The notes: generated by a model from the sequence alone, not told the origin. A DNA stretch of 31,416 nt from Pseudomonadota bacterium (GCA_038533315.1 JBCAZB010000001.1:1-31416), one strand, 5' to 3'; shown: positions 2,053 to 23,498, counted from the first letter of the stretch. Translations and numbers: made by a program.

Positions 2053-3840
2053 TCAGCTCACCCGCATCAGCCCAACCACGATAAGCCCTGGGCCACCATG
2101 TACACCAAATGCGGAACAGACATCGGTGCAATAGCTGTCTTGCACATGCGGTAAGGCCGCGACCAGTTGCTCCTGTAGCGCCAGTGCATCGTCTTCGCAA
2201 TTCGCGTGTCCGAAGGCGAGTCGATAGGTTTGTGCCGGGTCAATCTGACGAACGATGTAACGCACAAACTTCGGCAAGCGATTGCTCTTGCCGAGGATCA
2301 TGCCGCCTGACGACACTGCGCCGTCCGGCTTGGTGCGCAACACAGGATTGATGTTGAACCAGTCCGCGATGACCTTGCGCGATGCCGGTACGCGTCCACC
2401 GCGCACGGCGTAGGTGAGATCCTTTACGAGCGCCAGCGTTTGCGTGTTGTCGATCGCGCGGTTGACTGCATCGCGTATGGTGGCGAGGTCTTCACCGGCC
2501 TGCGCCAGCTCGGCGGCGTATTTTACTATCAACCCCTGACCAAGCGACGCATTACGTGAATCGATGACGTGGACGGTGCCATTGGCGGCAACCCGACCCG
2601 CGGCGTTTTGTGCGGCAGACATCGTGCCACTGACTTTCGATGAGAGGCTGATGGCGAGAACATTCTTAAAATGGCTCGCAAGAAACTGGTATTGACGCCT
2701 GAAGTCGCCCGGTGAAGGTTGCGACGTTGTTGGGTGATGCGGGTTACTCTGCAGCAGATCGAAGAATTCGGACTGACTGATACTCAGCTTGTCGAGAAAC
2801 CCCTGCTCTCCGAATTGCACGCGCAACGGGACCATATGAATATCCAGGGCCTCCATGTCCTCGTCGGTTAAATCGGCCGCGCTATCGGTAATGATCGCGA
2901 CGCGGTCGGAATTCCCATGCGTCGTATGTTGCTGCTTGTGCATGTCATCAGCTTTTTCACCGCTAACAACGCCGTACTCGCGCGCCAGTGCAAAAACCTG
3001 TTCTGGTTCATTCACATGGACATGAATGCGCGCTTTGTAACGGGACCCTGCCAAAACCAGACTGCCACCCATCGCAGAAAGCTGTTCGCGTAGCTTGCGA
3101 CGGTCGATATCGTCGCCGGATACGATACATTCGGTGCAGAAACGATACTCGAGATCGACTTCATCTCCAGCCATCGGTGCATCCGGCAGGTCGGCTGGAA
3201 GGTCGATTGCCTCAATGGTCTCGCCATCGCGCACATAGGCCAACATGCCCTCGAGCAAGTGGACAAAACCCTTGGCGCCGGCATCGACGACATCCGCTTT
3301 GCGCAGTTCAGCAAGCTGGTTGGTTGTTGCATTAAGGGCCTTGTTCGCGGCCTTCAAACCATCGCTTAGTAAGGTCGGAAAGTCGACTGCGGCAGTGCCT
3401 CGTACACGCTCGGTAAGGTGGTCTGCGAACGCGTCGATCACCGACAGAATGGTGCCTTCGCGCGGTTCGGCGATCGCATCACGGGCATAGGCGCTGCCGG
3501 CTAACACGGCATCGCAAAACGTCTGTGCGCTAAAGCGGGTCAGTTCCGCCGCTTTGTCGCTGACACCTTGAAAAAACTGCGCCATGATGGCACCGGAGTT
3601 ACCCCGAGCACCATCGAGCAAGGCATCGGCGGCGCGTGCCAGCAATTTATGTAAAGGCAGTGCGTCGTCCTTCTGCAGTACCTGACCCATCGCGCCCATC
3701 GTCAGCGCGAGGTTGGTACCGGTGTCGCCATCGGCGACAGGAAAAACATTGATCCGGTTCAAGCCATCCTGGCTTTTGATGACGCGTTGGACGCCATTGC
3801 GAAGTGCGAGACGCATCGCCTCGCCATCAAGAAATTGCAT
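2053..3840 (-). CDS. DAK2-domain/DegV fusion (fatty-acid kinase FakA-FakB-like)
   Basis: N-terminal FakA/DAK2 motifs (NRINVFPVADGDTGTNL, GARGNSG, EGTILSV, DAGAKG, FCTEC, IHVHVN), then a complete DegV domain (AIITDSAADL, TTSQPSPG, LSSKVSGT, IDSRNASLGQG, GGR, HGGPG). Confidence 0.88.
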   Translation of the reverse strand: MQFLDGEAMRLALRNGVQRVIKSQDGLNRINVFPVADGDTGTNLALTMGAMGQVLQKDDALPLHKLLARAADALLDGARGNSGAIMAQFFQGVSDKAAELTRFSAQTFCDAVLAGSAYARDAIAEPREGTILSVIDAFADHLTERVRGTAAVDFPTLLSDGLKAANKALNATTNQLAELRKADVVDAGAKGFVHLLEGMLAYVRDGETIEAIDLPADLPDAPMAGDEVDLEYRFCTECIVSGDDIDRRKLREQLSAMGGSLVLAGSRYKARIHVHVNEPEQVFALAREYGVVSGEKADDMHKQQHTTHGNSDRVAIITDSAADLTDEDMEALDIHMVPLRVQFGEQGFLDKLSISQSEFFDLLQSNPHHPTTSQPSPGDFRRQYQFLASHFKNVLAISLSSKVSGTMSAAQNAAGRVAANGTVHVIDSRNASLGQGLIVKYAAELAQAGEDLATIRDAVNRAIDNTQTLALVKDLTYAVRGGRVPASRKVIADWFNINPVLRTKPDGAVSSGGMILGKSNRLPKFVRYIVRQIDPAQTYRLAFGHANCEDDALALQEQLVAALPHVQDSYCTDVCSAFGVHGGPGLIVVGLMRVS

Positions 3841-6315: not shown

Positions 6316-7509
6316 TCACTTGCTCTCCGGATCCGAGCGATCCAGCGTGCTGGCGGGCTGAAGCGCTGCGCGGCCCAAGTCACTGAAACGTTCGCGAACC
6401 GCGTCGACGGTACGGTCCACGCGTCCGCTGTCCTCTCGCGACATCTCGCCGAAGAGGTTGAGTTGCTGATCACTGGTCAGCTTCGCCGTGCCGACACCGA
6501 GCAGGCGAATCGCGGCGTCCGGTTGCTCTTGCCGCCATTCGCTCAGCAATTGGACGGCGGCATCGAAAATAAGTTTCGTCACGTTGCTGGGCTGCGCCAG
6601 CGATACCTGGCGCGTCGCGGTTACGAAATCGCTGCGACGGATCTTGATCTGCACAACACCGGCCAGCAGCTGCTTGCTGCGCAGCCGTTCGCCGGTCTTG
6701 TCGCTGAGACGGCGCAGCGCGTTATGCATCTCACGCTCGTCGCGAAGGTCCTCGCGGAATGTGTTTTCGCTGCTGATCGATTTCTCTTCGCGCCAGGCGA
6801 TGACCGGTCTGGCATCGCGGCCAAAGGCGCGTTCTCGTATGCGGCCCGCGTAACGACCGAACAGTTGCTCCAGCTGTTTGTCGCTCGCCTGTTGCAGGTC
6901 GCGAATGCTGATGATGCCGACGGCTTTTAACCGGGTTTGCATGCGCGGTCCGATGCCGGGCAACACGGCCGCTGGCAGACCAGCGAGTCGAGTTGCTTCC
7001 TCGCCATGCTCAATGACGGTCAGGCCGTTCGGTTTATCGAGGTCTGACGCAATCTTGGCCACCAGTTTGTTGGTGGCAACGCCGACCGAGGCCGTCAATT
7101 GCGTCTGGGCCAGAATTTGCTGCTTCAGGTGGTGTGCGATCGTGACGGGTGTTCCGAACAGGTCGCGACTGGCACTGACGTCGAGAAACGCCTCATCCAC
7201 CGACAAACCTTCAACATCCGGCGTGACGCTCCTGAAAATTTCGAAAACCTGGCGCGACACCTGTTGGTAGCGGCCCATGCTGGAGCGCACGCAGATGGCC
7301 TCCGGGCAGCGCTGCAGCGCCTCACGTATCGGCATCGCGGAGCGCACCCCGAAGCGTCTGGCTTCGTAGCTGGCCGCGGCCACGACCCCGCGGTTCTCCG
7401 TGCCGCCTACCAGCACCGGTTTACCTTTCAGGGCTGGATTGTCGCGCTGCTCGACGGATGCGAAGAAGGCATCCATGTCGACGTGCAATATCGCGCGCTC
7501 GCGGGGCAT
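6316..7509 (-). CDS. dinB: DNA polymerase IV (Y-family)
   Basis: ILHVDMDAFFASVE, VAAASYEARRFGVRSAMP, SVDEAFLD, ASVGVATNKLVAKIASDLDKPNG, PGIG, little-finger domain (EKSISSENTF, IRLLGVG). Confidence 0.95.
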   Translation of the reverse strand: MPRERAILHVDMDAFFASVEQRDNPALKGKPVLVGGTENRGVVAAASYEARRFGVRSAMPIREALQRCPEAICVRSSMGRYQQVSRQVFEIFRSVTPDVEGLSVDEAFLDVSASRDLFGTPVTIAHHLKQQILAQTQLTASVGVATNKLVAKIASDLDKPNGLTVIEHGEEATRLAGLPAAVLPGIGPRMQTRLKAVGIISIRDLQQASDKQLEQLFGRYAGRIRERAFGRDARPVIAWREEKSISSENTFREDLRDEREMHNALRRLSDKTGERLRSKQLLAGVVQIKIRRSDFVTATRQVSLAQPSNVTKLIFDAAVQLLSEWRQEQPDAAIRLLGVGTAKLTSDQQLNLFGEMSREDSGRVDRTVDAVRERFSDLGRAALQPASTLDRSDPESK

Positions 7510-7517
7510 CGGTATCC

Positions 7518-8402
7518 TCAGTCGTGACGGCGCACGATCAGTCTCGCCATGACGCGCAGCGGATCGGCGGCATTACCGAAATGATCCAGATGTTGCAGGC
7601 CTTCCGCGTAGAGCTTGTCGCAATCCGCTTTGGCCTGTTCAACGCCGAAGATGGCCGGCCAGGTCGCCTTGTCGTGCAGGATGTCTGAGCCTGCGGGCTT
7701 GCCGATCGTATCGGTGTCACCTTCGATATCGAGAATGTCGTCGCGGATCTGGAACGCGAGCCCGAGACATTCGGAGAAATCGATAATGCGTTGTTGATCG
7801 TCGGCGGCGAGCGATGGCGCCACTGCGGTGGCCATATCGCAGGCAGCGGTAATCAGCGCCCCGGTTTTCTGTGCAAACATCTTGCGTAACAAATCACCGC
7901 TGATCGTCTTACCTTCCGATTCGATATCGATCGCCTGACCGCCCGTCATACCCAGCGAGCCGCAAGCCCGCGCAAGTGACTGCACCATGCGTAACTGCGC
8001 GGGCGCATGATCGACGCTGGCTTTCGCGAGCACTTCAAATGCCAGCGGTTGCAGTGCATCGGCAGCGAGGATGGCGGTCGCTTCGTCAAATCGTCGATGC
8101 ACGGTGGGTTTGCCGCGTCGGAGATCATCGTCATCCATGGCGGGCAGATCGTCGTGTACCAGTGAAAACGCGTGGATCAGCTCCACGGCGATCGCGGGGG
8201 CATCGAGCAGCGCCTTCTCGACCCCAAGCAACTCGCCGGTCGCGTAGACCAATAGCGGCCTGATGCGCTTGCCGCCATTCAATGTGGCGTAGCGCATCGC
8301 TTCGTGCAGTTGGGTCGGTATTTCTGAGGCCGGTGGTAGCGTATCGGCCAGCACCGAGTCGACGCGAGCGATATAATCCGGGATAGAAAATTCAAAAGAC
8401 AT
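7518..8402 (-). CDS. ispA: Geranyltranstransferase / farnesyl diphosphate synthase
   Basis: GGKRIRP, FARM with insertion HAFSLVHDDLPAMDDDDLRRGKPT (aromatic Phe five residues before the first Asp, FPP-synthase type), GGQAID, KTG, SARM FQIRDDILD. ATG 8402 preferred over TTG 8411. Confidence 0.93.
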   Translation of the reverse strand: MSFEFSIPDYIARVDSVLADTLPPASEIPTQLHEAMRYATLNGGKRIRPLLVYATGELLGVEKALLDAPAIAVELIHAFSLVHDDLPAMDDDDLRRGKPTVHRRFDEATAILAADALQPLAFEVLAKASVDHAPAQLRMVQSLARACGSLGMTGGQAIDIESEGKTISGDLLRKMFAQKTGALITAACDMATAVAPSLAADDQQRIIDFSECLGLAFQIRDDILDIEGDTDTIGKPAGSDILHDKATWPAIFGVEQAKADCDKLYAEGLQHLDHFGNAADPLRVMARLIVRRHD

Positions 8403-8459
8403 ACAGGGCAAAATCCAGTCGATTCGCTAGGCGGCTATTTTGCGCGTTGGACACCTCAT

Positions 8460-9455
8460 TTGACAGCCTCTGAACCGACAAAATCCGCCGTAACCGTAAT
8501 CGCGCATCCGAATATTGCGCTCGTTAAGTATTGGGGTAAGGCCGATGCCCAGCGTAACTTGCCGGATGTCGGGTCGATTTCGATCACGCTCGATGCATTG
8601 GCGACACGCACGACGGTCGCGCTTGCAGAATCCGATGACCGCTTTTCGTTGAACGAGTCGCCGGAGCCCGCTATGGCCGCGCGCTTGTTTGGTTTCCTCG
8701 ATCACTTCTACGGGGCGGACCGGCCGAAACTCGCTGTCACTTCGTTCAATGATTTTCCCACGGCAGCCGGGCTGGCGAGTTCCGCATCCGGGTTCGCAGC
8801 ATTGGTGGTCGCCGTGGATCGCCTGCTGCAGGCCGGTCACAGCACGTCGACGTTGGCGCAACAAGCCGGGCGCGGCTCGGGCTCTGCCGCCCGCTCGTTG
8901 TTTGGCGGCTTTGTGCGGCTCGATAAGCCGACGGGTAGCGACGATGACATCACCGTCACAGAGCTGTGCGCGGCGGCGGACTTCCCGCTTGAGGTGGTCG
9001 TGGCCATCACCAGCGAACAACGCAAGACGATCGGCTCCACGGAAGGGATGCGCGCGAGCAAGCTGACCTCGCCGTTTTATCCCGCCTGGTTAGAAACCCA
9101 CGACGCCGATATGACGGCGGCGGCCACTGCGATTGCACAGCGTGATTTCGAGGTGCTTGCGGATATCAGTGAGCATAGTTGCCTGAAAATGCACGCCGTG
9201 ATGCAAGCGACGCGTCCGGCGATGTTGTACTGGAATTCAGCCACTGTCGCTTGTATGCACGCCGTCCAGGCGCTGCGTGCGTCGGGAGTCGGCGTGTTTT
9301 TCACGATCGATGCCGGGCCGCAGGTTAAGGCGGTATGCCTGCCGGAGCACGCATCAACCGTGGCGGATACGCTTGTGTCGATCGATGGCGTGCATCGGAT
9401 CCTGCGTTCCGGTCTCGGCGACGGTGCGCGCGTTCTGAGTCAGGAGTCCGACTAG
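8460..9455 (+). CDS. mvaD: Diphosphomevalonate decarboxylase
   Basis: AHPNIALVKYWGK, SISITL, N-FPTAAGLASSASGFAAL, GSGSAARS, MHA, FFTIDAGPQVK. TTG start is uncertain by a few codons. Confidence 0.93.
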   Translation: MTASEPTKSAVTVIAHPNIALVKYWGKADAQRNLPDVGSISITLDALATRTTVALAESDDRFSLNESPEPAMAARLFGFLDHFYGADRPKLAVTSFNDFPTAAGLASSASGFAALVVAVDRLLQAGHSTSTLAQQAGRGSGSAARSLFGGFVRLDKPTGSDDDITVTELCAAADFPLEVVVAITSEQRKTIGSTEGMRASKLTSPFYPAWLETHDADMTAAATAIAQRDFEVLADISEHSCLKMHAVMQATRPAMLYWNSATVACMHAVQALRASGVGVFFTIDAGPQVKAVCLPEHASTVADTLVSIDGVHRILRSGLGDGARVLSQESD

Positions 9456-10480
9456 TGCCGCAGCCATTGCGTGTCACTGTGCCCGGCAAGATTATGCTGG
9501 CCGGTGAGTATGCCGTGCTTCGCGGTGGTGTCGCCATGCTCGCCAGCACCACCCAGGTGTGTGAGGCGACGTTACGTCGGCACAGTGAGCCCGACCACAG
9601 TATTCGTACCGTCGGCTTTCGAGAAGGTACCTATCGATTCTCCATTGATGCACGTGCTCGAGTGACCGATGTCGGTGGTGACAGCGCGGCCGCGCTGCGT
9701 TTACCGGTTGCAGTGATCGAGGAGTTCCCGCCGCGTAAACCGGTCAGTTTGAGTCTCGATACCCGTGCGTTCTACACCGCTGATCGCAAACTCGGGCTGG
9801 GTTCCAGCGCCGCGGCGACCGTGGCGCTAGCTGAAGTGTTGGCTCGTTTCAATGGTGATCCAGACGTGCGGCGCAGTGCGCTCAACGCCCACCGCGCCTT
9901 TCAGGGTGGGCATGGCAGCGGCGCGGATATTTACGCGGTACAACAGGGCGGTGTGGTGTCTTTCCAGCGCAGCGAAGGGCGGAACAAACTGACCACCTTG
10001 CCATGGCCTGAGTCGTTGCATGCCACAGTGTTCACGTTGTCGACGGCTGCGCCCACCGTCTCGCATATCCAGCGGTTTGACGCCTGGCTCGAGAAAGACG
10101 CGACGGCCGAACGACTGCTTGGCGAGATGATCGCCGCGACGCACGCCTTGGGGAAGGTGTGGCGCAGCGGCGATGCAGCAGCGATAATTGAGAGTATGCG
10201 TGAATTGACGCAACACATGCTGGCCATCGATGCAGCGGGCGAGCTCGGCTATACAGCGGGTGGTCATGCGGCGCTGCTTCAGACCGAGACACCGGCTGGT
10301 GTTTTGTATAAACCGGTCGGCGCTGGTGGTGGCGACCTTGGGCTTGCGCTTTCGGATGATCCGACGGCACTGGCGGCCTTCGCAAGTCAAGTCACCGGCA
10401 AGAACTGCACTGTGCTCGACACAGCACTGGGCGTCACGCGCCCGACGCGCAGCTGGCAAGCGGATGAGGGGACATCATGA
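9455..10480 (+). CDS. mvaK2: Phosphomevalonate kinase (GHMP family)
   Basis: Start reassigned to GTG 9455 (overlaps the mvaD TAG). PGKIMLAGEYAVL, KLGLGSSAA, GSGADI, KPVGAGGGDLG, plus position within the MVA operon. Confidence 0.82.
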   Translation: MPQPLRVTVPGKIMLAGEYAVLRGGVAMLASTTQVCEATLRRHSEPDHSIRTVGFREGTYRFSIDARARVTDVGGDSAAALRLPVAVIEEFPPRKPVSLSLDTRAFYTADRKLGLGSSAAATVALAEVLARFNGDPDVRRSALNAHRAFQGGHGSGADIYAVQQGGVVSFQRSEGRNKLTTLPWPESLHATVFTLSTAAPTVSHIQRFDAWLEKDATAERLLGEMIAATHALGKVWRSGDAAAIIESMRELTQHMLAIDAAGELGYTAGGHAALLQTETPAGVLYKPVGAGGGDLGLALSDDPTALAAFASQVTGKNCTVLDTALGVTRPTRSWQADEGTS

Positions 10481-13293
10481 CGTCGGTATTTTCCGGGTTC
10501 TATCGTTTGGCGATCAGCGACCGACTGGCCGCGTTGCTCGAGGCCGGCGTATTGTCTACCAACGATTATGCGGCGCTGAGCAGTGGCGATATCACGCTGG
10601 ATCGCGGTACGGCAGAACATTTGATCGAGAACGTGATTGGCGTCGCCGGCCTGCCGTTTGCCGTCGCGCTCAACTTCCGGATCAACAAGCAAGAGCGGCT
10701 GATTCCGATGGTCGTCGAAGAGCCTTCGATCGTTGCCGCTTTGTCGTCGGCCGCGAAGTTGGCGCGGTCGGTCGGCGGGTTCGAGGTCGACAGTGACGAT
10801 GGCCTGATGATCGGCCAGATTCAGTTACTGGACGGCGAAGACCCGGATGCATCACTAGCGGCGCTGGCCGATGCCGAACAACGTATCGTTGACGCAGCCA
10901 ATGCGGTGCATCCAAACCTGATCAAACGCGGTGGCGGTGTGCGTGGCATGCAGCAATTCAGCTATCAACGTGCAGGTGGCGGTCACATGATCGTCGTCCA
11001 TTTGCTGATCGACACCTGTGACGCGATGGGCGCCAACCTGATTAATACGATCTGCGAGCAGGTCGCGCCGATGGTGGCATCGATTGCCGGTGCGCGTCCG
11101 CACCTGCGCATCTTGTCCAATCTGGCGGACAAAGCACTGGTGCGAGCCCGTATGCGTCTGCCGCTGTCAGCATTGCATGCGGACGAAGAAAAGGCGCGTT
11201 CGATTCGTGATGGCATCATCGCCGCCAACGAGTTCGCGGAACTCGATGTGCATCGCGCGACGACGCACAACAAAGGCATCATGAACGGTATCGATGCGTT
11301 GGTTGTCGCGACCGGCAACGACTGGCGTGCGGTGGAAGCCAGCGCCCACGCATGGGCAGCACGCAGCGGTCGTTACCGCTCACTAACACGCTGGACGGCG
11401 AATGAGCAGGGCGATCTATGTGGCGAGCTGTTATTGCCGATCAAACTCGGCATCGTCGGTGGCTCTGTACGTGTCAATCCTGTGGCGAAGTTAAGTTTGC
11501 GACTCGCAGGCATCGAGCGTTCACGTGAGCTTGACGAGATCGCCTGTGTCGTTGGTCTTGCGCAGAACTTTTCTGCGCTCAAAGCACTGGCGACGGACGG
11601 CATCCAGCGCGGCCATATGGCATTGCACGCACGCAGCGTCGCGATTCAGGCGGGCGCTCAGGATTCTGAGGTCGAGCCGGTCGTCGCAGCGATGACCGCG
11701 GAGGGCGTCGTTAAGACCTGGCGTGCGCGAGAACTCATCGAAGAGCTGCGTCTTAAGTCACCCGCTTATCCGCCACGTGAACTGATCGGCGAAGTCAGCA
11801 GTGCGGCGAAACTAATTCTGGCCGGCGAGCATGCGGTGGTTTACGGTCGCCGCGCACTGGGTTTGCCGATTCCGCGTGCGTTACGCGCCGAGGTGTTCAG
11901 CAGCAAGACACCGTTGACTATCCGCGTCGACGACTGGCAACTGCAGTATGACGCCAGCGATGATGCCGATCATCGCAGCCCGCTCGGCATGCTGGTCGAT
12001 ACGATCCTGTCGCTTGCCGCGATCGAAATGCCGAACGGTCATATCGATGTGTCATGCCAGATCCCGTTTGCGGCGGGCCTCGGCGGCTCGGCGGCCCTCG
12101 CCGTGGTGCTAATTCGTGCGATGGCGAAACTCACCGGCCTCAAACTGTCACCCACCGAGATCAACGAGATGGCGTTCGCCTGCGAGAAGCTCGCGCACGG
12201 CACACCATCGGGTGTCGACAACACGCTGGCGACTTTCGCTGCACCATTGCTGTTCTCGCCGCGTGCGACGGCGAAGACTCAAGACATCGCGATCGCCGCG
12301 CCACTGCAGCTCGTCATCGCCTTCAGTGGCATCAAAGGTGTGACGTCAGATTTGGTGGCGCGTGTGGGTGAACGTCGGGAGCGACGACCCGCTGCATTCG
12401 ATGCGATGTTTGACCAGATCGACGCCGAAGTGTCGGCGTGCCTCGCTGCGTTGCAGTCGGCGGATTGGCGATCACTTGGCGACAGCCTGAACCTGTGCCA
12501 CGGTCTGTTGAATGCCATCGGCGTTAGTCATCCAGAACTCGAGAAGATGGTGCACATCGCGCGCGATGCGGGTGCACTCGGTGCCAAGCTGACCGGCGCT
12601 GGCGGCGGCGGCTCGGTGATTGCGCTGTGTGAGGGCAATGCGGAGCAAGTCGCGACGGCCCTGCGTCAAGCACGCTACGAAGCACGCGTTATTGATGTGG
12701 CCGCTGCTGAGCCAGCGGACCCGATCGTTTCATTCGATGCCGAGGAACTGGTGCTCGTCAACGAGCAGGATGAGATCACCGGTTATCTACCGAAGGCCGA
12801 TTGCCATAACGGTGATGGTATTTTGCACCGCGCGTTTTCGTTGTTTGTGTTCAATGATGCCGGCGAGGTATTGTTGCAGCAACGCGCCGCGGACAAACGC
12901 TTGTGGGGCGGCTATTGGTCCAACAGCTGTTGCTCTCATCCGCGCCGCGGTGAGTCCATGGACGAGGCGACTCATCGACGCCTGCATCAGGAACTTGGTT
13001 GCCACGCCGAGCTCGAGTTTGTCTACAAGTTCAGCTACCAGGCGAGCTTTGGCAGTGCTGGCAGCGAACACGAGATGTGCTCGGTGTATGTAGGTCGTCT
13101 GAAAGACGAAGTGCGGCCTAATCGAACCGAGGTCGACGACTGGCAGTTTCTGGCGCCCGAGGCGGTCGACCGATGGCTCGCCGAAGACCCGGACACGCTA
13201 ACGCCGTGGTTCAAGATGGAGTGGGCGAAGTTGCGCCACGAGTATGCCGACAGCATCGAATCGCTGACGGCGCCGGTCGAGTCACCCGAGTAG
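10477..13293 (+). CDS. Trifunctional fusion: class II HMG-CoA reductase (~aa 1-425) + mevalonate kinase (~aa 440-740) + type 1 isopentenyl-diphosphate isomerase (~aa 756-930)
   Basis: HMGR: ENVIG, EEPSIVAA, DAMGAN, THNKGIMNG, GIQRGHMALHAR. MVK: AAKLILAGEHAVVYG, GLGGSAA, EKLAHGTPSGVDN, KLTGAGGGG. IDI1: LHRAFSLFVFN, LLQQRA, WSNSCCSHP, RRLHQELG, EHEMC, TPWF. One uninterrupted 938-codon frame. Confidence 0.93.
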   Translation: MTSVFSGFYRLAISDRLAALLEAGVLSTNDYAALSSGDITLDRGTAEHLIENVIGVAGLPFAVALNFRINKQERLIPMVVEEPSIVAALSSAAKLARSVGGFEVDSDDGLMIGQIQLLDGEDPDASLAALADAEQRIVDAANAVHPNLIKRGGGVRGMQQFSYQRAGGGHMIVVHLLIDTCDAMGANLINTICEQVAPMVASIAGARPHLRILSNLADKALVRARMRLPLSALHADEEKARSIRDGIIAANEFAELDVHRATTHNKGIMNGIDALVVATGNDWRAVEASAHAWAARSGRYRSLTRWTANEQGDLCGELLLPIKLGIVGGSVRVNPVAKLSLRLAGIERSRELDEIACVVGLAQNFSALKALATDGIQRGHMALHARSVAIQAGAQDSEVEPVVAAMTAEGVVKTWRARELIEELRLKSPAYPPRELIGEVSSAAKLILAGEHAVVYGRRALGLPIPRALRAEVFSSKTPLTIRVDDWQLQYDASDDADHRSPLGMLVDTILSLAAIEMPNGHIDVSCQIPFAAGLGGSAALAVVLIRAMAKLTGLKLSPTEINEMAFACEKLAHGTPSGVDNTLATFAAPLLFSPRATAKTQDIAIAAPLQLVIAFSGIKGVTSDLVARVGERRERRPAAFDAMFDQIDAEVSACLAALQSADWRSLGDSLNLCHGLLNAIGVSHPELEKMVHIARDAGALGAKLTGAGGGGSVIALCEGNAEQVATALRQARYEARVIDVAAAEPADPIVSFDAEELVLVNEQDEITGYLPKADCHNGDGILHRAFSLFVFNDAGEVLLQQRAADKRLWGGYWSNSCCSHPRRGESMDEATHRRLHQELGCHAELEFVYKFSYQASFGSAGSEHEMCSVYVGRLKDEVRPNRTEVDDWQFLAPEAVDRWLAEDPDTLTPWFKMEWAKLRHEYADSIESLTAPVESPE

Positions 13294-13425
13294 GTAGGCG
13301 CTAAGCATCCCACGGACGCTCAGCGATCCCTGTGTCTCGCTCAATGACGTTCGCTCAGGGAGCCGATCATTAATGGGGCGATCCAGCCCGAAAGTGGTTT
13401 GGGCCCGATTTGCCTCGGACTAAAT

Positions 13426-14895
13426 TCAAGCGCGGTACTTGTAGTACTCGATGCCGATATCCTGGAATTTGTGATCGGTCTTGCGGCCCACGTCGGCGAT
13501 AAAGAACTCGCCACCATTCGACGCCGGCAAACCCAGTGCACGTCGACCGTCGTGTAGTGCTTCGTACTGTTCGCGACTGATGTCGATGGGTTGCTCCAAC
13601 GCTTGGGCGAACCGTATCTTGCGCGTGGCTTCACGCCAGCCTGGTGCGACGTACATCGGGATGACTTCCGCCGCATCGCCACTGCCGTACCCGAGGGTCA
13701 GGATTTCTTGTCCGGTCAGGTCGATATCGTCACGCAGCGCTTCTTCAAAGCCGGACGCCATCCACGCCGGCAGTGCCGCCGTGTAAAGGTTGCCGAGATC
13801 GCGCATGCCTTCGCTGCCGAGTGCCAGTTTGCTTTCAACGGTGTCTACGAAATCGGGCATGCGACGGAACAGGCGCACCAGCGCCATTGTTAGCGGCATT
13901 GCATCGTCGTTGAGATGTTCTGCGCTCGCGAGTGACGCGATCGTGTGGTCTGCGCGCAGTTCAGCGACTAACTCGTCGCCATCCATTTCAGCTAGTGCTG
14001 CGTATTCACGCAAGCGTGCTTCGCCGTCATCGCTGTTGGCGAGCGCCCAGAACCACGCAACCGAGAAACCGTTTTCCGGCATACGTCGGTAAGGACGGTG
14101 CATGAATAAGTGTTTGACGGATTCCAAGTGTGCCGCTGGGTCGATACCTCGGCGACGATACATATCGGCGAGTGCGTGCAGCGTCTCGTCGATATAGCAG
14201 GTGGTGGAATACTTGCCATTGAACACCGGGAAATCCTGCACTTGATGCGATTCACTGCGGTCCTGACCGCAGAAGCGCAGCATCGGCTTACGGAAATCCA
14301 TGATGCGGTAGTCAGACGCGCTGCCACTGTTAATGAGATCGACCGTAGCGAGCTGCGGGTCTTCCTCAAGCAGCATGGCGATCGCGCCAGCGCCCTGCGT
14401 GGGTTCACCACTGCTGCCGCGTTGGTATTCTGCGATGTCAGCACAGACAACAATCGCCTTGCTGCCGCGGCCGTCAAAAGCGAGCGCGCGAATCGCGCTT
14501 TTCATCGCGTAGACGCCGCCGAGACACGCATGTTTGAACTCTGGGACTTCGCAAGCACGCGATAGTGCTGGCTTGCCGCGTTGCTCCAATGCGGCGTCGA
14601 CCATGCCTTTGACGATCACCGCGCCCGCGGAATTGTCGAGGCTCGATTCGGTACCCAGACCCAGGAAGCGAACGCTATCGGGATCGATGTCGTATTGGTC
14701 GATGAGTCGCAGGACTGCGGTCGCAGCCATCGTGTAAACGCTGTGTTCGTGACCACGCATTCGGAAGCTGTGGCCGACGACGGCGCTGATTTTAGACCAT
14801 TGCTGGTCTGTCCAATCGCACCATTCGTCGAGTTTTACACGATAAGGTGGCACATAGGCCGCGAGCCCACTGATTCCGATGTTTGTCATGGTCAT
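13426..14895 (-). CDS. mvaS: Hydroxymethylglutaryl-CoA synthase (long form)
   Basis: Start ATG 14895 or 14889 (MTMTNIGISGLAAYVP). GTESS (catalytic Glu), EFKHACLGG (catalytic Cys), GEPTQGAGA, HRPY (catalytic His), LGNLYT, GYGSG. Confidence 0.88.
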   Translation of the reverse strand: MTMTNIGISGLAAYVPPYRVKLDEWCDWTDQQWSKISAVVGHSFRMRGHEHSVYTMAATAVLRLIDQYDIDPDSVRFLGLGTESSLDNSAGAVIVKGMVDAALEQRGKPALSRACEVPEFKHACLGGVYAMKSAIRALAFDGRGSKAIVVCADIAEYQRGSSGEPTQGAGAIAMLLEEDPQLATVDLINSGSASDYRIMDFRKPMLRFCGQDRSESHQVQDFPVFNGKYSTTCYIDETLHALADMYRRRGIDPAAHLESVKHLFMHRPYRRMPENGFSVAWFWALANSDDGEARLREYAALAEMDGDELVAELRADHTIASLASAEHLNDDAMPLTMALVRLFRRMPDFVDTVESKLALGSEGMRDLGNLYTAALPAWMASGFEEALRDDIDLTGQEILTLGYGSGDAAEVIPMYVAPGWREATRKIRFAQALEQPIDISREQYEALHDGRRALGLPASNGGEFFIADVGRKTDHKFQDIGIEYYKYRA

Positions 14896-14971
14896 TCTGC
14901 GCTGACTGGTAGTGGCGCTGCCCAACGCGGCTTTCGGGCAGGAGGCCGACACAAATTTTGTCCCCGACGGC

Positions 14972-15000
14972 ATTGTAGGCCTGTGGCACGGTGCCTACAA
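14972..15000 (-). promoter_or_regulatory. Putative sigma70 promoter of mvaS, overlapped by an 8-bp inverted repeat
   Basis: Minus strand TTGTAG (15000-14995)-N17-TACAAT (14977-14972). Plus strand TTGTAGGC-N12-GCCTACAA (14973-15000). Confidence 0.55.
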
Positions 15001-15011
15001 GCCTCGTGGCA

Positions 15012-16319
15012 TCAATAAGTGGCGAAGATGTACAACACCATTGTGACAATAATGATAACGACAGCGGTGAGATAGCCTGCAAATAGCAGAACGTACTTGA
15101 ACAGCGTGATCACACGCCCCTGCTGGTAGACATTTCGCAACGCCTTGTACAAATAGATCGGAATATAAAGCCCAATCAATAAGTTAGGGATCAAATAGAG
15201 CCAGCTGGGCGCGGTCGTCAGTGACAGCAGGCTGTTGTAGCTGAACAGGATCGAGGCAGCGAAAAACAGGAAGCTGTGGTAGTGCACCAGCATCAGCAGA
15301 TGCTCGACGTAGTAACGACGTGACAGTGGGTACAAAAATTTCAGCAGCATCGCGAGCAACGGCAACAATGCCAATGCGCCAACCGCGAGGTTCTGCGTAA
15401 AGCGCTCGGTGAAACGCTGCCCGTTATCGTCTTTGATGTGGTCACAAATGGCTTCCGCACGTCGCTCTGTGATGTAGCGGTTAAGCCACGGCATACCGAT
15501 CTCGTCGAAATCGGCCTCACAAGGAATTTCTTCCTCGGCTTCGGCCAGCGCGTCCGCGTCTGTCGGCAGCTCGTTGTCATTGTCGAGTGTTGCGTCGTCT
15601 TCCGGCTCAGGGTCTCCGTCGCCGACGCGCAGATTGACACCATCGGCACCGATCGACAGCCCGGTGATACGTACCTCGTCATCGACCGACTCATCGATCG
15701 CGCTGCTCTCGGTGAAGGCGGTCGTTAGCAGGAAGAAGATGAAACTCATCACGAGATACATGCGGAACGGAGGCATGTAACGAGCGCGCCGCCCGCGCAG
15801 GTATTCGGCGGTCAGGTAGCCTGGGCGAATGGCGAGCGGGATCATCGTTCGCCACAGGCGCGAATCCAGCTCAAACATGTCCCCGAAGGCGTCCCTGATC
15901 AGTTCGAACAGGCTGATCAGGCGGGTGTTGCTGCGCTGACCACAATTCCAGCAATACTGACCGGAGATCTCAACGCCGCAATTCAGGCAACTCGTTGCCG
16001 ATGTTTCGCTGCGGGTCTCCATCGCACGGACCTGGCGACTGCTGCGTAAGTCTTCGCCAAATAGGGCGACTCCCGGTGCGCGCATCCGCTCCGCATGCTC
16101 TTCAAGGTATCGATCCAGCGCCTGTTGATCGGATAAGACGTATTGCACCGTATGTACAACGCGATCGTCTTGTGTCGGAGAAGGATCAAACCGGTGCGCT
16201 TCGATGAAGCCCGGCAATGCCAGCATGTCATCGACATGCGCAGGCAACCAGTCCCCGAGCGCTGCGCTGTCGCGCTCGGGGATACTCAGTTTAACTTCAT
16301 AAACAACGCGTCTACTCAG
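15012..16319 (-). CDS. DUF4286-like N-terminal domain fused to zinc-ribbon/DUF3667-like membrane protein; probable CTG start
   Basis: Frame is open upstream of the listed TTG to CTG 16319 (SRRVVYEVKL...DWLPAHVDDMLALPGF...YVL, DUF4286-like). Then CLNCG-x5-YCWNCGQ, LDSRLWRT, RPGYLTAEYLRGRRARYMPPFRMYL (DUF3667-like) and several TMs. Confidence 0.75.
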   Translation of the reverse strand: MSRRVVYEVKLSIPERDSAALGDWLPAHVDDMLALPGFIEAHRFDPSPTQDDRVVHTVQYVLSDQQALDRYLEEHAERMRAPGVALFGEDLRSSRQVRAMETRSETSATSCLNCGVEISGQYCWNCGQRSNTRLISLFELIRDAFGDMFELDSRLWRTMIPLAIRPGYLTAEYLRGRRARYMPPFRMYLVMSFIFFLLTTAFTESSAIDESVDDEVRITGLSIGADGVNLRVGDGDPEPEDDATLDNDNELPTDADALAEAEEEIPCEADFDEIGMPWLNRYITERRAEAICDHIKDDNGQRFTERFTQNLAVGALALLPLLAMLLKFLYPLSRRYYVEHLLMLVHYHSFLFFAASILFSYNSLLSLTTAPSWLYLIPNLLIGLYIPIYLYKALRNVYQQGRVITLFKYVLLFAGYLTAVVIIIVTMVLYIFATY

Positions 16320-18880
16320 CTTGCGTCCTTCTCAGTGGCTTTGCTGGTTTTCTTTTTGGCCGTCTTTTTGCGAACGGTTTTCTTCTTGGTGGTCGTCTTC
16401 TTCTTCGCAGCCGCTTTCTTGCGTGTGGCTGGCTTGCGCGCCTGCTGACCGATTTCGCTGGTATCGAAATCATCGACCGCAATCAGTTCCGCTACAGCGG
16501 TATGGTATTCCGTCAGCAGTGCGGCTTCCTGTTTTTCGAGCAGACCGATATCGAGCGCTTCCTCAATCTGGTGTGGCAGATAGTCGGATTTGAGTGTGCC
16601 TTTCTTCTCGGCATCGCGCAGGCGACGCTGCAGTGGCTGCACCGTCACTGTTTGCTCAAGCGCTGCCTGCAGCATCCCAAGCGGGTTACCCGGCTGTTGT
16701 TCGCGGTAAACCTCGCCGCACAGGCGATCGCGAGCACCGGTTGGGTTGATCATCAGCTCAACGATATCCTGACCAATGCGGTCAGACGGCGCTGAATAGG
16801 TGCGCCCGCGCGGGAAAATCAGCGCGCGCAACAACCATGCCACAGGACGGTTCGGGAAATTCTGCAGGAAGCTGTGCAATTGCTCCTGCGCCTGATACAT
16901 CAGCGTGCGCACCGACCACTCAACCAATGGCAAGTCCTGCGGTTGACGACCCTGGTTTTCGTAGTGCTTCAGGACAGTGCTGGCGAGGTACATGTAACTG
17001 AATACATCGCCGAGCCGTGCCGACAGGCGTTCTTTGATTTTCAGCTTGCCGCCGAGTGTCAACATCGCGAAGTCCGCTGTCAGTGCGAAAGCGGCGCTAT
17101 AGCGGTTGATGTTCTGGAAGTAACGCGACGTCGATGACTGCACCGGCACGTCGCTGAACTTGGCATGCGTCAGCGCCAGTACGAACGCGCGTGCTGCGTT
17201 GCTGATCGCATAGCCGATGTGGCCGAACAGCGCTTTGTCGAATTCGATCAAGCCGCGATTTTCGTCCTCGTCCTGTGCCGCGTGCAGCTCACGCAGTACA
17301 AACGGGTGACACCGTATTGCGCCCTGCCCGAAGATAATCAATGATCGGGTCAGAATGTTGGCGCCTTCTACGGTGATCGCGATCGGCAATGCCATATAGC
17401 CTCTGCCGAGGTAGTTGCGCGGTCCCATCATCACGCCTTTGCCGCCTTGCACATCCATGGCGTCATTAGCGACCTTCCGTGCAAGTTCCGTGCAGTGATA
17501 CTTCAATACCGCGGACGGTACGGCAGGCTTTTCGCCCTCCGTAATCGCCCCGGCGGTCACGTCGACGGCAGCATTCATGATGTAGGTGTTGCCGGCCATG
17601 CGTGCGATCGCCTCACCAACCCCTTCGAATTGACCAATCGGCAAATGGAACTGACGGCGGATGCGCGCATAAGCACCGGTCGCGAAGGTCGCAGCCTGGC
17701 CACCACCTGCACCACTGGATGGCAGCGTGATCGCACGGCCGACGGACAGCAGCTCGACCAGCATCTTCCAGCCTTTGCCGGCCATTTCTGGACCGCCAAT
17801 GATGTAGTCGAGCGGCACGAATACGTCCTTGCCGCTGGTCGGGCCATTCTGGAACGGAACGTTCAGCGGCAGGTGACGACGGCCATGTACGACACCCGGT
17901 GTGTTAGTGGGTACCAGTGCTGCGGTAATGCCGTAATCGTCGACATCGCCGATCAGGTTGTCCGGATCGCGTAGCTTGAACGCCAAACCGAGGACCGTGG
18001 CGATGGGGGCCAGCGTGATGTAACGCTTATTCCAGTTTAGCTTGATGCCGATGATCTCTTCACCTTCCCAGGTGCCCTTGCAGACAACGCCCGAGTCGAT
18101 CAAAGCAGCGGCGTCTGACCCGGCTTGCGGCGACGTCAGTGCAAAACACGGAATTTCGTCGCCGGATGCGAGGCCAGGTAGGTAACGCTGTTTCTGTTCA
18201 TCGGTGCCGTAGTGCAACAGCAACTCAGCCGGGCCCAGCGAGTTCGGTACACCGATCGTTGATGCGGCAACGGTGCAACGCGTCGACAGTTTCTTCAGGA
18301 TCAGCGCATTGGCGTACGGCGAGAATTCCAATCCGCCATACTCTTTCGGAATGATCATCGCGAAGAAGCGGTGCTCTTTGATGTAATCCCAGATTTCAGG
18401 CGGCATATCACCTAGCTCGTGGCTGATCTGCCAGTCGTCGAGCATGCGGCACAGCGTTTCGGTCGGCCCGTCGATGAAAGCCTGTTCCTCTTCCGTCAAA
18501 CGCGGCGCCGGCATTTGCATCAGACGATTCCAGTTCGGTAGTCCGGTGAACAGCTCTCCGTCCCACCACACGCTGCCGGCTTCAAGGGCTTCTCGTTCGG
18601 TGTCCGACATCTGCGGCAGCATCGTCTTATAGACGTTCAGCATGCGGCGCGTGATCTGATCACGACGGAAGTCATCGAAGTTCAGGACGACCATCGTCAG
18701 TACGATCAGCCACAGCAACAGCATGACGAACCCATAGCCATCGCCAAACAGCTGGTAAGCCGCGACGGCCGCGACGGCGGCGATCGTCGCTGTTTTCAAG
18801 TCGACACGCTTGTAAGCCAGCATCAGCGCGCCGCCAAACAGCAGCACGAACCAAAACAGTCCAAAAATGAAATCCAGCAC
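16316..18880 (-). CDS. fadE: Membrane-anchored acyl-CoA dehydrogenase FadE with Lys-rich C-terminal tail
   Basis: GTG start with GGAG SD, two N-terminal TMs, MSDTEREALEAGSVWWDGELF, VPNSLGPAELL, PCFALTSPQAGSDA, KRYITLAP, GRAITLP, ITVEGANILTRSLIIFGQGAIRCHP. Confidence 0.95.
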   Translation of the reverse strand: MLDFIFGLFWFVLLFGGALMLAYKRVDLKTATIAAVAAVAAYQLFGDGYGFVMLLLWLIVLTMVVLNFDDFRRDQITRRMLNVYKTMLPQMSDTEREALEAGSVWWDGELFTGLPNWNRLMQMPAPRLTEEEQAFIDGPTETLCRMLDDWQISHELGDMPPEIWDYIKEHRFFAMIIPKEYGGLEFSPYANALILKKLSTRCTVAASTIGVPNSLGPAELLLHYGTDEQKQRYLPGLASGDEIPCFALTSPQAGSDAAALIDSGVVCKGTWEGEEIIGIKLNWNKRYITLAPIATVLGLAFKLRDPDNLIGDVDDYGITAALVPTNTPGVVHGRRHLPLNVPFQNGPTSGKDVFVPLDYIIGGPEMAGKGWKMLVELLSVGRAITLPSSGAGGGQAATFATGAYARIRRQFHLPIGQFEGVGEAIARMAGNTYIMNAAVDVTAGAITEGEKPAVPSAVLKYHCTELARKVANDAMDVQGGKGVMMGPRNYLGRGYMALPIAITVEGANILTRSLIIFGQGAIRCHPFVLRELHAAQDEDENRGLIEFDKALFGHIGYAISNAARAFVLALTHAKFSDVPVQSSTSRYFQNINRYSAAFALTADFAMLTLGGKLKIKERLSARLGDVFSYMYLASTVLKHYENQGRQPQDLPLVEWSVRTLMYQAQEQLHSFLQNFPNRPVAWLLRALIFPRGRTYSAPSDRIGQDIVELMINPTGARDRLCGEVYREQQPGNPLGMLQAALEQTVTVQPLQRRLRDAEKKGTLKSDYLPHQIEEALDIGLLEKQEAALLTEYHTAVAELIAVDDFDTSEIGQQARKPATRKKAAAKKKTTTKKKTVRKKTAKKKTSKATEKDAS

Positions 18881-21529: not shown

Positions 21530-22452
21530 TCCAGCAAATGCCGATGTTACTGCGTCGCGAGTTGTGGGAGCACAAGGCGTTGTACGTCACGCCGTTTGTC
21601 GTCGCTGCACTTATTGTGTTCGGCTTTATCCTGTCGTTTTTCGTTATGGTGTTTACCGGATCGTCTTTTAATGCTGCAGTCGCCGCGTTGGAGTTGACCG
21701 GCGCCCCTGCGTCACTGGCGGGCGGCGCGGCGTTGGTTGGCGTGCCGTTCGGGATGCTCAATCTGGCTTTAATCGCCGTTATCTTTTTCTACAGCATTGA
21801 TGCGCTCTATGCCGAGCGTCAGGACCGCAGTATTTTGTTCTGGCGTTCACTGCCGGTGACCGATACCGAGACCGTCATCTCGAAATTTCTGACTGCGATC
21901 ATCGCGGCACCGATAGTCACGATGCTGGTGATGCTCGTAACGCAAGTCATCTTGCTCACACTGGCTTCCATCGCGATTCTGTTGGGCAGTGGTAATCCGG
22001 TCGAATTACTGCTCGGTCCTCTGCCGTTCGTACAGACTTGGGTCCTGTTTGGTTATTTCCTGCTGGCCGGGTCGCTCTGGTTTGCGCCGGTTATTGCCTG
22101 GTTCCTGTTTTGCTCTGCATTTGCGAAGCGCTCGGTATTGATCTGGGTGTTTGTGCCGTGGATCGTGCTGATCATGCTGGAAGGCATCGTGCTCCGGCAG
22201 GGCACGATCCTTAACATGATCGGCCATCGTTTCAGCGCTGGCGTGCCGGCTGCATTCACGGCGCCCAGTGGTTTCGATATCAATCGGATCGACGACAATG
22301 AACTGGTCGACTTGCTCACCCGCGGTGACGTTAATGTCTTAGAGCTGATAGCCCCCGTTCAGTTTCTGACAACACCGGCATTGTGGGGTGGTTTCGCGGT
22401 AGCTGCCGCGCTACTGGCGGGCGCGATTTACTTCCGTCGTTTCCGTACCTGA
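21526..22452 (+). CDS. ABC-2 type permease
   Basis: ATGA overlap with the ATPase, about 6 hydrophobic segments, LYAERQDRSILFWRSLPVTDTETVISKF motif. Confidence 0.85.
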   Translation: MIQQMPMLLRRELWEHKALYVTPFVVAALIVFGFILSFFVMVFTGSSFNAAVAALELTGAPASLAGGAALVGVPFGMLNLALIAVIFFYSIDALYAERQDRSILFWRSLPVTDTETVISKFLTAIIAAPIVTMLVMLVTQVILLTLASIAILLGSGNPVELLLGPLPFVQTWVLFGYFLLAGSLWFAPVIAWFLFCSAFAKRSVLIWVFVPWIVLIMLEGIVLRQGTILNMIGHRFSAGVPAAFTAPSGFDINRIDDNELVDLLTRGDVNVLELIAPVQFLTTPALWGGFAVAAALLAGAIYFRRFRT

Positions 22453-23498
22453 GTCTGACGCCGTCTTGCATCCCTTCGCGTTTCCGCGTCCGGCTTGGCA
22501 CTGACATTCAGCTTTTTCATTCGTGATCGGAATTGGTGGTATGACAGCGCCAGCAACCCCGCTGCCGTTTTCTGATTGAAGTTGGCGCGTTCCAGCGCCT
22601 GTTCCACATAACGACGCTCGAAAGCGTCGCGTTCTCTTTTCAGGTTACAGGGCAACAACAACGGCTTGCCTGTTTGGACCGATAGGGTGCCGGGTGACGT
22701 CGCGGCAACCGGCTCGCTGACTAGCCGGAAAGGTGAGTCGAAGGCGTCGAAGATGATCTCGTCGACCAGCTCTTCGCTATCTTCCTGACGGTACACCGAA
22801 CGCTCAACTGCGTTCTTTAGTTCGCGAACATTACCGGGCCAGGTGTGCTGCAGCAGTGTTGAGGCCGCTCTTGAGTGGAAACCCGGGAAGTGGTCGCGAC
22901 GCAGTTCCGCACACATGTTGACAGCGAAGCTGTGTGCCAGTGGCAAAATGTCCTCGGCACGCTCACGCAGCGGCGGTACGGTGATGACGTCAAAGGCAAG
23001 TCTGTCGAGTAGGTCGGCTCGGAACGTGCCTCGGCTGACCCGAGCCGGAAGATCCTCATTGGTTGCCGCGACCAGCCGGACGTCGACATTGAGCGTTTCA
23101 CTGCCGCCAACCCGTTCGAATTCACCATACTCGATAACGCGCAGGATCTTCTCCTGCACGCGCATCGATACCGTGCCGAGTTCATCCAGAATCAGCGTGC
23201 CTCCGTCGGCGCGCTCGAAATGCCCCAGGTGCTGGCGGTTCGCACCAGTAAATGCGCCGGCTTCGTGACCAAAAAGCTCAGACTCGAGGATGCTCTCAGT
23301 CAACGCAGCGCAATTCACCTTAATGAGTGGCTGCTCCCAGCGTTCCGACAGAAAGTGCAGGCGGCCAGCGATGAGTTCCTTACCGGTACCACGCTCGCCG
23401 ATCACAAGAACGGGCCGCGCGACGGGGGCCGCACGGGACACGTGCTCCAGCATTGCCAGAAAAACGGGCGATTCACCAATGAGCTGAATATTCTGCAT
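22428..23498 (-). CDS. pspF: Phage shock protein sigma54 activator PspF
   Basis: No N-terminal regulatory domain, Walker A GERGTGKE, LSERW (PspA-docking Trp), ESELFGHEAGAFTGA, ILDE, WPGNVRELKN, C-terminal HTH; divergent from pspA. Confidence 0.95.
   Translation of the reverse strand: MQNIQLIGESPVFLAMLEHVSRAAPVARPVLVIGERGTGKELIAGRLHFLSERWEQPLIKVNCAALTESILESELFGHEAGAFTGANRQHLGHFERADGGTLILDELGTVSMRVQEKILRVIEYGEFERVGGSETLNVDVRLVAATNEDLPARVSRGTFRADLLDRLAFDVITVPPLRERAEDILPLAHSFAVNMCAELRRDHFPGFHSRAASTLLQHTWPGNVRELKNAVERSVYRQEDSEELVDEIIFDAFDSPFRLVSEPVAATSPGTLSVQTGKPLLLPCNLKRERDAFERRYVEQALERANFNQKTAAGLLALSYHQFRSRMKKLNVSAKPDAETRRDARRRQTQVRKRRK

Follow-up and report, generated by a model that had tools for sequence, protein, structure and literature searches.

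In Gram-positive cocci, the mevalonate (MVA) pathway to isopentenyl diphosphate (IPP) is encoded by operons of the type mvaK1-mvaD-mvaK2 with fni, plus mvaS and mvaA or mvaE. A minority of Gammaproteobacteria also carry MVA genes; these lie in clusters, and their spread as syntenic units has been inferred (Hoshino and Gaucher 2018, PMC6107057). Here, we describe an MVA cluster at positions 7518–14895 of a 31,416-nucleotide contig (GCA_038533315.1, JBCAZB010000001.1; the whole contig was analyzed and is referred to as the window) from the metagenome-assembled genome (MAG) of a Pseudomonadota bacterium. The cluster is very probably a functional, chromosomally native locus for the classical (eukaryote-type) MVA pathway of a bacterium of the family Woeseiaceae, and the only route of this cell to IPP and dimethylallyl diphosphate (DMAPP). 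The reading is carried by the gene content, the catalytic motifs, the synteny, the absence of markers of the methylerythritol phosphate (MEP) pathway, which most bacteria of this kind use, and the presence of enzymes that consume isoprenoid precursors. The pathway is textbook, and gammaproteobacterial MVA clusters have already been published; what is new is the lineage and a triple fusion of three of the enzymes.

The chemistry and the enzyme families are the same as in the coccal operons: 3-hydroxy-3-methylglutaryl-coenzyme A (HMG-CoA) synthase (HMGS), a class II HMG-CoA reductase (HMGR), mevalonate kinase (MVK) and phosphomevalonate kinase (PMK) of the GHMP type, and a decarboxylase of the mevalonate diphosphate decarboxylase (MDD) family. 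In both cases, the genes would be the sole source of IPP in organisms without the MEP pathway. The present locus differs in that HMGR, MVK, and isopentenyl-diphosphate isomerase (IDI) form one polypeptide, and in that the IDI is of type 1 (Nudix) and not the type 2 flavin mononucleotide enzyme. The locus also includes a farnesyl diphosphate (FPP) synthase, it belongs to a Gram-negative gammaproteobacterium, and HMGS and PMK are too divergent for the NCBIfam cut-offs. In MvaE of Enterococcus faecalis (Protein Data Bank (PDB) entries 7m1z and 7m3h, both matched by the HMGR domain of the window), a class II HMGR is likewise fused by nature to another MVA enzyme. It joins a thiolase to HMGR (steps 1 and 3), whereas the protein in the window joins HMGR, MVK, and IDI (steps 3, 4, and 7) and has no thiolase domain; the domains found in it are HMG-CoA_red, GHMP_N/C, and NUDIX.

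Cassettes with a two-domain HMGR-MVK protein are present in other Woeseiaceae, Salinisphaeraceae, Planctomycetota, Acidobacteriota, Ignavibacteriales, and Bdellovibrionales. They have the same gene order, and their orthologs are 45–61% identical to those of the window. In these cassettes, IDI has a gene of its own, which overlaps the MVK stop codon or directly adjoins it, whereas in the genus of the window the stop is gone and a linker of approximately 10 aa takes its place. The clusters of Hoshino and Gaucher (PMC6107057) were described without mention of Woeseiaceae and with fused partners trimmed away. Our literature searches found no paper on Woeseiaceae together with mevalonate, none that describes an HMGR-MVK or HMGR-MVK-IDI fusion, and none that describes a family-wide replacement of the MEP pathway in Woeseiaceae. 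The initial annotation, a short note made from the window alone, had raised the question of whether the same cluster is conserved and already described across the family. Conserved it is, but we found no paper that describes it there.

The cluster is laid out as follows, with the three domains of the fusion gene given separately.

7518–8402, minus strand: ispA, FPP synthase, 294 aa with a start at ATG 8402; TTG 8411 is also possible in the open frame
8403–8459, 57 bp: divergent intergenic gap between ispA and mvaD, the presumed promoter region
8460–9455, plus strand: mvaD, diphosphomevalonate decarboxylase (MVD), 331 aa, TTG start
9455–10480, plus strand: PMK of the GHMP type (PF00288), 341 aa, GTG start
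10477–13293, plus strand: fusion gene HMGR-MVK-IDI, a single open reading frame (ORF) of 938 aa
10477–11760, plus strand: fusion domain 1, class II HMGR, residues 1–428
11797–12711, plus strand: fusion domain 2, MVK, residues 441–745
12724–13293, plus strand: fusion domain 3, type-1 IDI, residues 750–938 plus the stop codon
13426–14895, minus strand: HMGS, 489 aa with a start at ATG 14895; convergent with the fusion gene

Seven activities with catalytic motifs within 7.4 kb had been proposed for this region. All seven were found by the ORF listing and by Pfam and NCBIfam scans, but the genes number five, since MVK and IDI are domains of the HMGR protein. The scans found no thiolase in 7518–14895; acetoacetyl-CoA thiolase is thus the only activity missing from the cluster, as had been noted, and at least five places elsewhere in the genome score over the cut-off of the thiolase model TIGR01930 (none in the window). 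The stop codon of mvaD (TAG, 9453–9455) shares one base with the GTG start of PMK at 9455, and the PMK stop (TGA, 10478–10480) overlaps the ATG of the fusion gene at 10477 by 4 nt as ATGA. Both overlaps agree with the initial annotation. From these overlaps, we infer translational coupling and a single operon for mvaD, PMK, and the fusion gene. The ispA gene is divergent from mvaD in all Woeseiaceae loci compared; its start at ATG 8402 is more likely than that at TTG 8411. HMGS in relatives starts with MNIGISG and has stop codons just upstream of that sequence, which argues for a start at ATG 14895 (or 14889) and not at 14973 and bears out the right-hand coordinate first given for the gene. 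The convergent intergenic region at 13285–13435 folds no better than shuffled sequences (z −0.46). An ORF at 8427–9020 on the minus strand was considered as a separate IDI and dropped as spurious; it has no family match and lies antisense to mvaD.

The three domains of the 938-aa protein were assigned by profiles, motifs, and structural relatives. The HMGR domain scores 356 bits with TIGR00532 (cut-off 260) and 328 bits with PF00368, and class I models reach only 21–30 bits. Aligned to 1qax, it has the catalytic Glu, Lys, Asp, and His motifs of class II enzymes (ENVIG, NKGIMNG, GNDWRA, and GHMALHAR), and DAMGAN is also present. Its best PDB matches include 6dio (4.6e-112), 1qax (2.9e-109), and 6p7k. 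The MVK domain scores 240 bits with TIGR00549 (cut-off 163), its best PDB matches are all MVKs (2hfs, 4.7e-34), and it has the motifs KLILAGEHAVV, GLGGSAA, GTPSGVDN, and KLTGAGGGG. The IDI domain scores 150 bits with TIGR02150 (cut-off 106) and 173 bits with NF002995 (cut-off 127), and matches 3hyq at 3.3e-29. It contains WSNSCCSHP and SEHEMC, in which NSCCSHP and EHE align with the Salmonella and Escherichia coli IDI structures, as in a type-1 (Nudix) enzyme. The enzyme activities and the cofactor preference are predictions, as is any benefit of the fusion.

The FPP synthase scores 204 bits with PF00348 and 328 bits with NF045485 (FPPsyn, cut-off 275). The MVD passes TIGR01240, the MDD model, with 257 bits (cut-off 171), and PF22700 and PF18376 also match. 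HMGS exceeds the gathering scores of PF01154 (57.9 bits) and PF08540 (37.6 bits). With TIGR01835, it reaches 171 bits against a cut-off of 360, and all NCBIfam HMGS models stay below their cut-offs. Its best PDB match is 5hwp (1.3e-27); the HMG-ACP synthases PksG and CurD match far less well (1e-9). The Glu, Cys, and His catalytic motifs are present (GTES, HACLGG, MHRPY, and GYGSG). Compared with the Myxococcus HMGS 5hwp, approximately 38 extra residues lie between two alignable blocks (approximately residues 263–390 of the long ORF).

The host genome is a 2.77-Mb MAG from a marine metagenome in 438 contigs, of which the window is the longest. Among named records, the nearest loci are found in Woeseiaceae MAGs and in the cultured genus Lentisalinibacter. 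By these neighbors, the host is assigned to the Gammaproteobacteria, family Woeseiaceae, which narrows the "probable gammaproteobacterium" of the initial annotation. Dxs, Dxr, IspG, and IspH gave no match over cut-off in the genome itself or in four congeners that are 97–100% complete (IspD, IspE, and IspF were not searched), and none of 24 other genomes sampled from the family yielded Dxr. The weak matches to the Dxs model are transketolase-like fragments. The presence of UppS and UbiA shows a need for IPP. A squalene-hopene cyclase was looked for in the genus and not found. With the MEP markers absent and thiolases, UppS, and UbiA present, the predicted role of the cluster is most likely that of the only source of IPP.

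The same pattern holds in the order. Among 151 genomes sampled, MVK is over cut-off in 97 and Dxr in 50, and no genome has both; the MVA and MEP markers are almost all-or-none per family. It appears that the whole family, and most of its order, swapped the MEP for the MVA pathway. Across the class, the MVK model matches at E ≤ 1e-40 in 48 of 400 genomes and over cut-off in 27, so the pathway is patchy there and not vanishingly rare. One genome of the same genus (G005, 90% complete) has neither the fusion gene nor Dxr, and is the only congener without a detectable route to IPP. This is most likely an assembly gap.

In the proposed pathway, an unlinked thiolase would form acetoacetyl-CoA, and HMGS would convert it to HMG-CoA. 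Domain 1 of the fusion would reduce HMG-CoA to mevalonate, probably with NADPH as judged from the cofactor patch, and domain 2 would phosphorylate the mevalonate. The separate PMK and MVD would then yield IPP, which domain 3, the type-1 IDI, would equilibrate with DMAPP. The divergently encoded FPP synthase would build FPP for UppS, ubiquinone, and other products. The cluster would have been acquired before the family diversified and would have replaced the MEP pathway.

Several observations weigh against this account. The genome itself is 71% complete, so the absence of the MEP pathway rests mainly on the congeners. HMGS and PMK fall below every NCBIfam equivalog cut-off, which marks both as divergent. 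By sequence, the nearest relative of the MVD is a phosphomevalonate decarboxylase (PMD), and the HMGR domain as a whole most resembles the NADH-using catabolic enzymes of Pseudomonas, Delftia, and Burkholderia. A sigma-70 promoter scan of 7300–15200 gave 0 sites with 3.0 expected by chance, and a terminator scan of the same region gave 8 terminator-like sites with 6.9 expected, which is nothing above chance.

The alternative that survives best, although we consider it improbable, is a pathway of the haloarchaeal or Chloroflexi type, in which the MVD would be a PMD making isopentenyl phosphate and the adjoining GHMP kinase would not be a PMK. The nearest PDB entries to the MVD are indeed 6n0z (2.7e-60) and 6n0x (8.3e-59; aligned over 318 residues), ahead of true MDDs (approximately 1e-48). 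These are structures of the PMD of Anaerolinea thermophila, the specificity of which was converted to that of a diphosphomevalonate decarboxylase by mutagenesis (PMC9254496). The two entries differ at exactly two positions, N/K in YWG-x and H/M after GSTQG. These two differences, taken with the published statement, suggest that 6n0z is the specificity-switch mutant of 6n0x. Where 6n0x has N and H, the MVD of the window has K (in YWGK) and M (in GSTEGM), in agreement with 6n0z and with true MDDs such as those of E. faecalis and Streptococcus pyogenes. The K is present in 59 of the 59 cassette MVDs that could be scored, and the M in nearly all. The MDD model is passed, and the PMD model NF040704 is far below its cut-off (123 against 475). 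The profile and the K and M residues favor mevalonate 5-diphosphate as the putative substrate, although the nearest structure overall is a PMD. A decarboxylase that is PMD-like overall and MDD-like at the specificity positions is a natural data point for the evolution of substrate choice.

The neighboring kinase is under the cut-offs of all PMK models, and as a single sequence it is ambiguous, with weak matches to both MVK and PMK models. A profile built from 30 of its orthologs matches Lin0012 of Listeria (3k17), which we take to be a PMK, over the full length at 8.7e-51. This is 26 orders of magnitude better than the matches to MVKs (approximately 1e-25); the S. pneumoniae PMK is matched at 1e-22. 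An AlphaFold2 model of the kinase (predicted local distance difference test score 92.7) has its best template modeling score (TM-score), 0.82, to 3k17. Foldseek could not by itself separate PMK, MVK, and galactokinase, which are all GHMP folds, and only the TM-score favored 3k17. An Atlas look-up returned only clusters called "GHMP kinase". A search for animal-type PMK (PF04275) gave no match, but the control was also silent, so this result carries no weight. The alternative pathway would also involve an isopentenyl phosphate kinase, and none is over cut-off in five genomes of the genus: NF040647 reaches at best 44 bits against a cut-off of 120, in generic amino-acid-kinase matches that are also seen in E. 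coli and other controls. The MDD-type residues, the adjoining PMK, and the lack of an isopentenyl phosphate kinase over cut-off all argue for the classical order MVK, PMK, MDD.

Less probable still is an accessory MVA cluster that serves a secondary metabolite while a MEP pathway does the housekeeping, an arrangement known from some terpenoid clusters of actinomycetes. At 71% completeness, MEP genes could sit in the unassembled part of the genome, and a related triple-fusion cassette in another lineage adjoins carotenoid genes. However, four MEP markers are absent from the four nearly complete congeners and Dxr from the 24 family genomes, and MVK and Dxr never occur together in the order. The window contains no terpene synthase, cyclase, or carotenoid gene, and the genus lacks a detectable squalene-hopene cyclase.

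We give very little credence to the possibility that the locus serves mevalonate catabolism, in which a "degradative" HMGR would oxidize mevalonate as in Pseudomonas mevalonii. NCBI names the orthologs "hydroxymethylglutaryl-CoA reductase, degradative", and the best PDB matches of the domain (6dio, 1qax, and 6p7k) are of the catabolic type. The HMGRs of P. mevalonii, Delftia, and Burkholderia are NAD-linked and catabolic. The window enzyme has the same class II fold as 1qax of P. mevalonii and as 6dio and 6p7k of Delftia and Burkholderia over the full length (369–378 bits) and has all catalytic motifs in common with them. Those enzymes stand alone, whereas the window enzyme is fused to MVK and IDI, which act downstream in biosynthesis, and is clustered with PMK, MVD, HMGS, and FPP synthase. 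Family scans found no HMG-CoA lyase in the cluster, and a cell that lacks the MEP pathway needs a biosynthetic route. When the domain is aligned to 1qax, D146 of the P. mevalonii enzyme is replaced by H and L148 by N; D146 and L148 are reportedly residues that confer NAD specificity. The sequence that follows is IKRGGG, which resembles VKRGGG of the S. pneumoniae enzyme (presumably NADPH-preferring) and not NSLGGG. The cofactor patch, the operon context, and the missing MEP pathway suggest that the HMGR is biosynthetic and probably NADPH-linked.

The composition and the neighborhood of the cluster bear on its history. The cluster genes have a GC content of 0.58–0.62, and the long ORFs of the genome average 0.577 (standard deviation 0.021). 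GC, GC at third codon positions (GC3), and codon usage of the five genes all lie within the genome's own distribution (GC3 z 0.03–1.7), and there is no GC break. The synteny DinB-ispA/mvaD-PMK-HMGR=MVK(=IDI)/HMGS-DUF3667 recurs across Woeseiaceae, down to 45–60% protein identity and including the cultured Lentisalinibacter, a pattern that favors vertical inheritance in the family. Outside it, the core MVD-PMK-HMGR=MVK-IDI occurs in Salinisphaeraceae, Planctomycetota, Acidobacteriota, Ignavibacteriales, and Bdellovibrionales. In a tree of HMGR plus MVK, the Woeseiaceae group together (Shimodaira–Hasegawa-like approximate likelihood ratio test (SH-aLRT) 92), and the Salinisphaeraceae group with Planctomycetota. 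The tree and the spread of the cassette agree with the published view of MVA genes moving as a syntenic set (PMC6107057).

The ORF listing and family scans found no integrase or insertion sequence in the window, so the initial annotation was right on mobile elements as it was on the lack of a compositional break. It had further suggested an old, ameliorated acquisition, and this gains support from the native GC3 and codon usage, from the family-wide synteny with DinB and DUF3667 flanks, and from the mutual exclusion of MVK and Dxr in the order. A recent horizontal acquisition or a mis-binned contig is equally hard to credit as catabolism. In its favor, such cassettes are common to several phyla, the Salinisphaeraceae branch with Planctomycetota, and the MAG is fragmented. 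Against it, no contig of that genome is longer than the window, the composition of the cluster is typical, 17 of 18 congeners have the same gene with the same flanks, the Woeseiaceae group together (if only at an SH-aLRT of 92), and no integrase or insertion sequence is in the window.

HMGR and MVK are a single ORF in nearly all lineages that carry the cassette. Two separate genes encode them in Binatia, in a MAG labeled Deltaproteobacteria (NCBI rank Myxococcota), and in a MAG labeled Virgibacillus. The IDI is in one open frame with HMGR-MVK in 17 of the 18 genomes of the window's genus. Beyond this genus, the HMGR-MVK-IDI single ORF is found only in a second clade (935–953 aa), of which some members come from Desulfobacterales MAGs; one member has a polyprenyl-synthase/MVD-PMK-fusion arrangement that adjoins carotenoid genes. 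In a sister Woeseiaceae lineage (L067 and L068), the MVK stop and the IDI start overlap as ATGA. In the window's genus, a linker of approximately 10 aa (AAEPADPI) leads in frame into the conserved IDI N-terminus VSFDxEEL. The IDI gene would thus have been fused in frame to an older HMGR-MVK gene within this genus, through loss of the overlapping ATGA stop and start.

On the tree, two changes are required to account for the two triple-fusion clades, and their linkers are unrelated and of different length. An approximately unbiased (AU) test of a single clade for both was not significant (p 0.076), so that a single origin is not formally rejected. Parsimony, the unrelated linkers, and the IDI identities make an independent origin likely, although not proven given the AU result. 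A broader proposal can be put forward only tentatively. It holds that the 938-aa protein is a working enzyme with three activities, with two or more independent origins, one in this Woeseiaceae genus and one in the clade that includes the Desulfobacterales MAGs, against the background of an order-wide replacement of the MEP by the MVA pathway. The fusions may have been selected because a physical link between the first committed steps and the last would couple flux and the balance of IPP and DMAPP.

A congeneric MAG (G014) carries two full copies of the locus, from DinB to DUF3667 (L021 and L022), on one 1.57-Mb contig, approximately 105 kb apart and in opposite orientation. Their fusion proteins are 78–79% identical to that of the window, and the contamination of the bin is 4%. 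Either the locus is truly duplicated, or two strains were merged into a chimeric assembly.

The NCBI name "hydroxymethylglutaryl-CoA reductase, degradative" is applied to both the 750-aa and the 938-aa fusions (proteins P0001–P0120), and the two-domain HMGR-MVK proteins are thus likewise labeled only as a reductase. The MVK and IDI activities are invisible to a pathway reconstruction that relies on names, and pipelines can miss both and call the pathway incomplete. The triple fusion with a type-1 IDI is apparently under-annotated and unstudied.

A 411-aa protein with DUF4286 and DUF3667 domains (15012–16247, minus strand) is the conserved right-hand neighbor of HMGS throughout Woeseiaceae. The flanks are otherwise ordinary housekeeping and regulatory genes, all on the minus strand: a FadE-type acyl-CoA dehydrogenase (16316–18880), a PspF-like sigma-54 activator that neighbors psp genes (22428–23498), and a HAMP-PAS-GGDEF-EAL protein (26051–28516). 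At 2053–3840 on the minus strand, one 595-aa protein combines FakA-type Dak2 and middle domains with a complete DegV (FakB-like) domain.

This compact Gram-negative MVA module, with five genes and natural fusions, offers isoprenoid engineering a part that is ready for use. Woeseiaceae (JTB255) rank among the most abundant bacteria in marine sediments, and the apparent swap from the MEP to the MVA pathway affects the metabolic reconstruction of their genomes. It also predicts insensitivity to inhibitors of the MEP pathway and bears on how the carbon isotopes of isoprenoid lipids are read. If the replacement is indeed order-wide, the isoprenoid lipids of these bacteria would carry an MVA isotopic signature, and members of the order would be insensitive to fosmidomycin.

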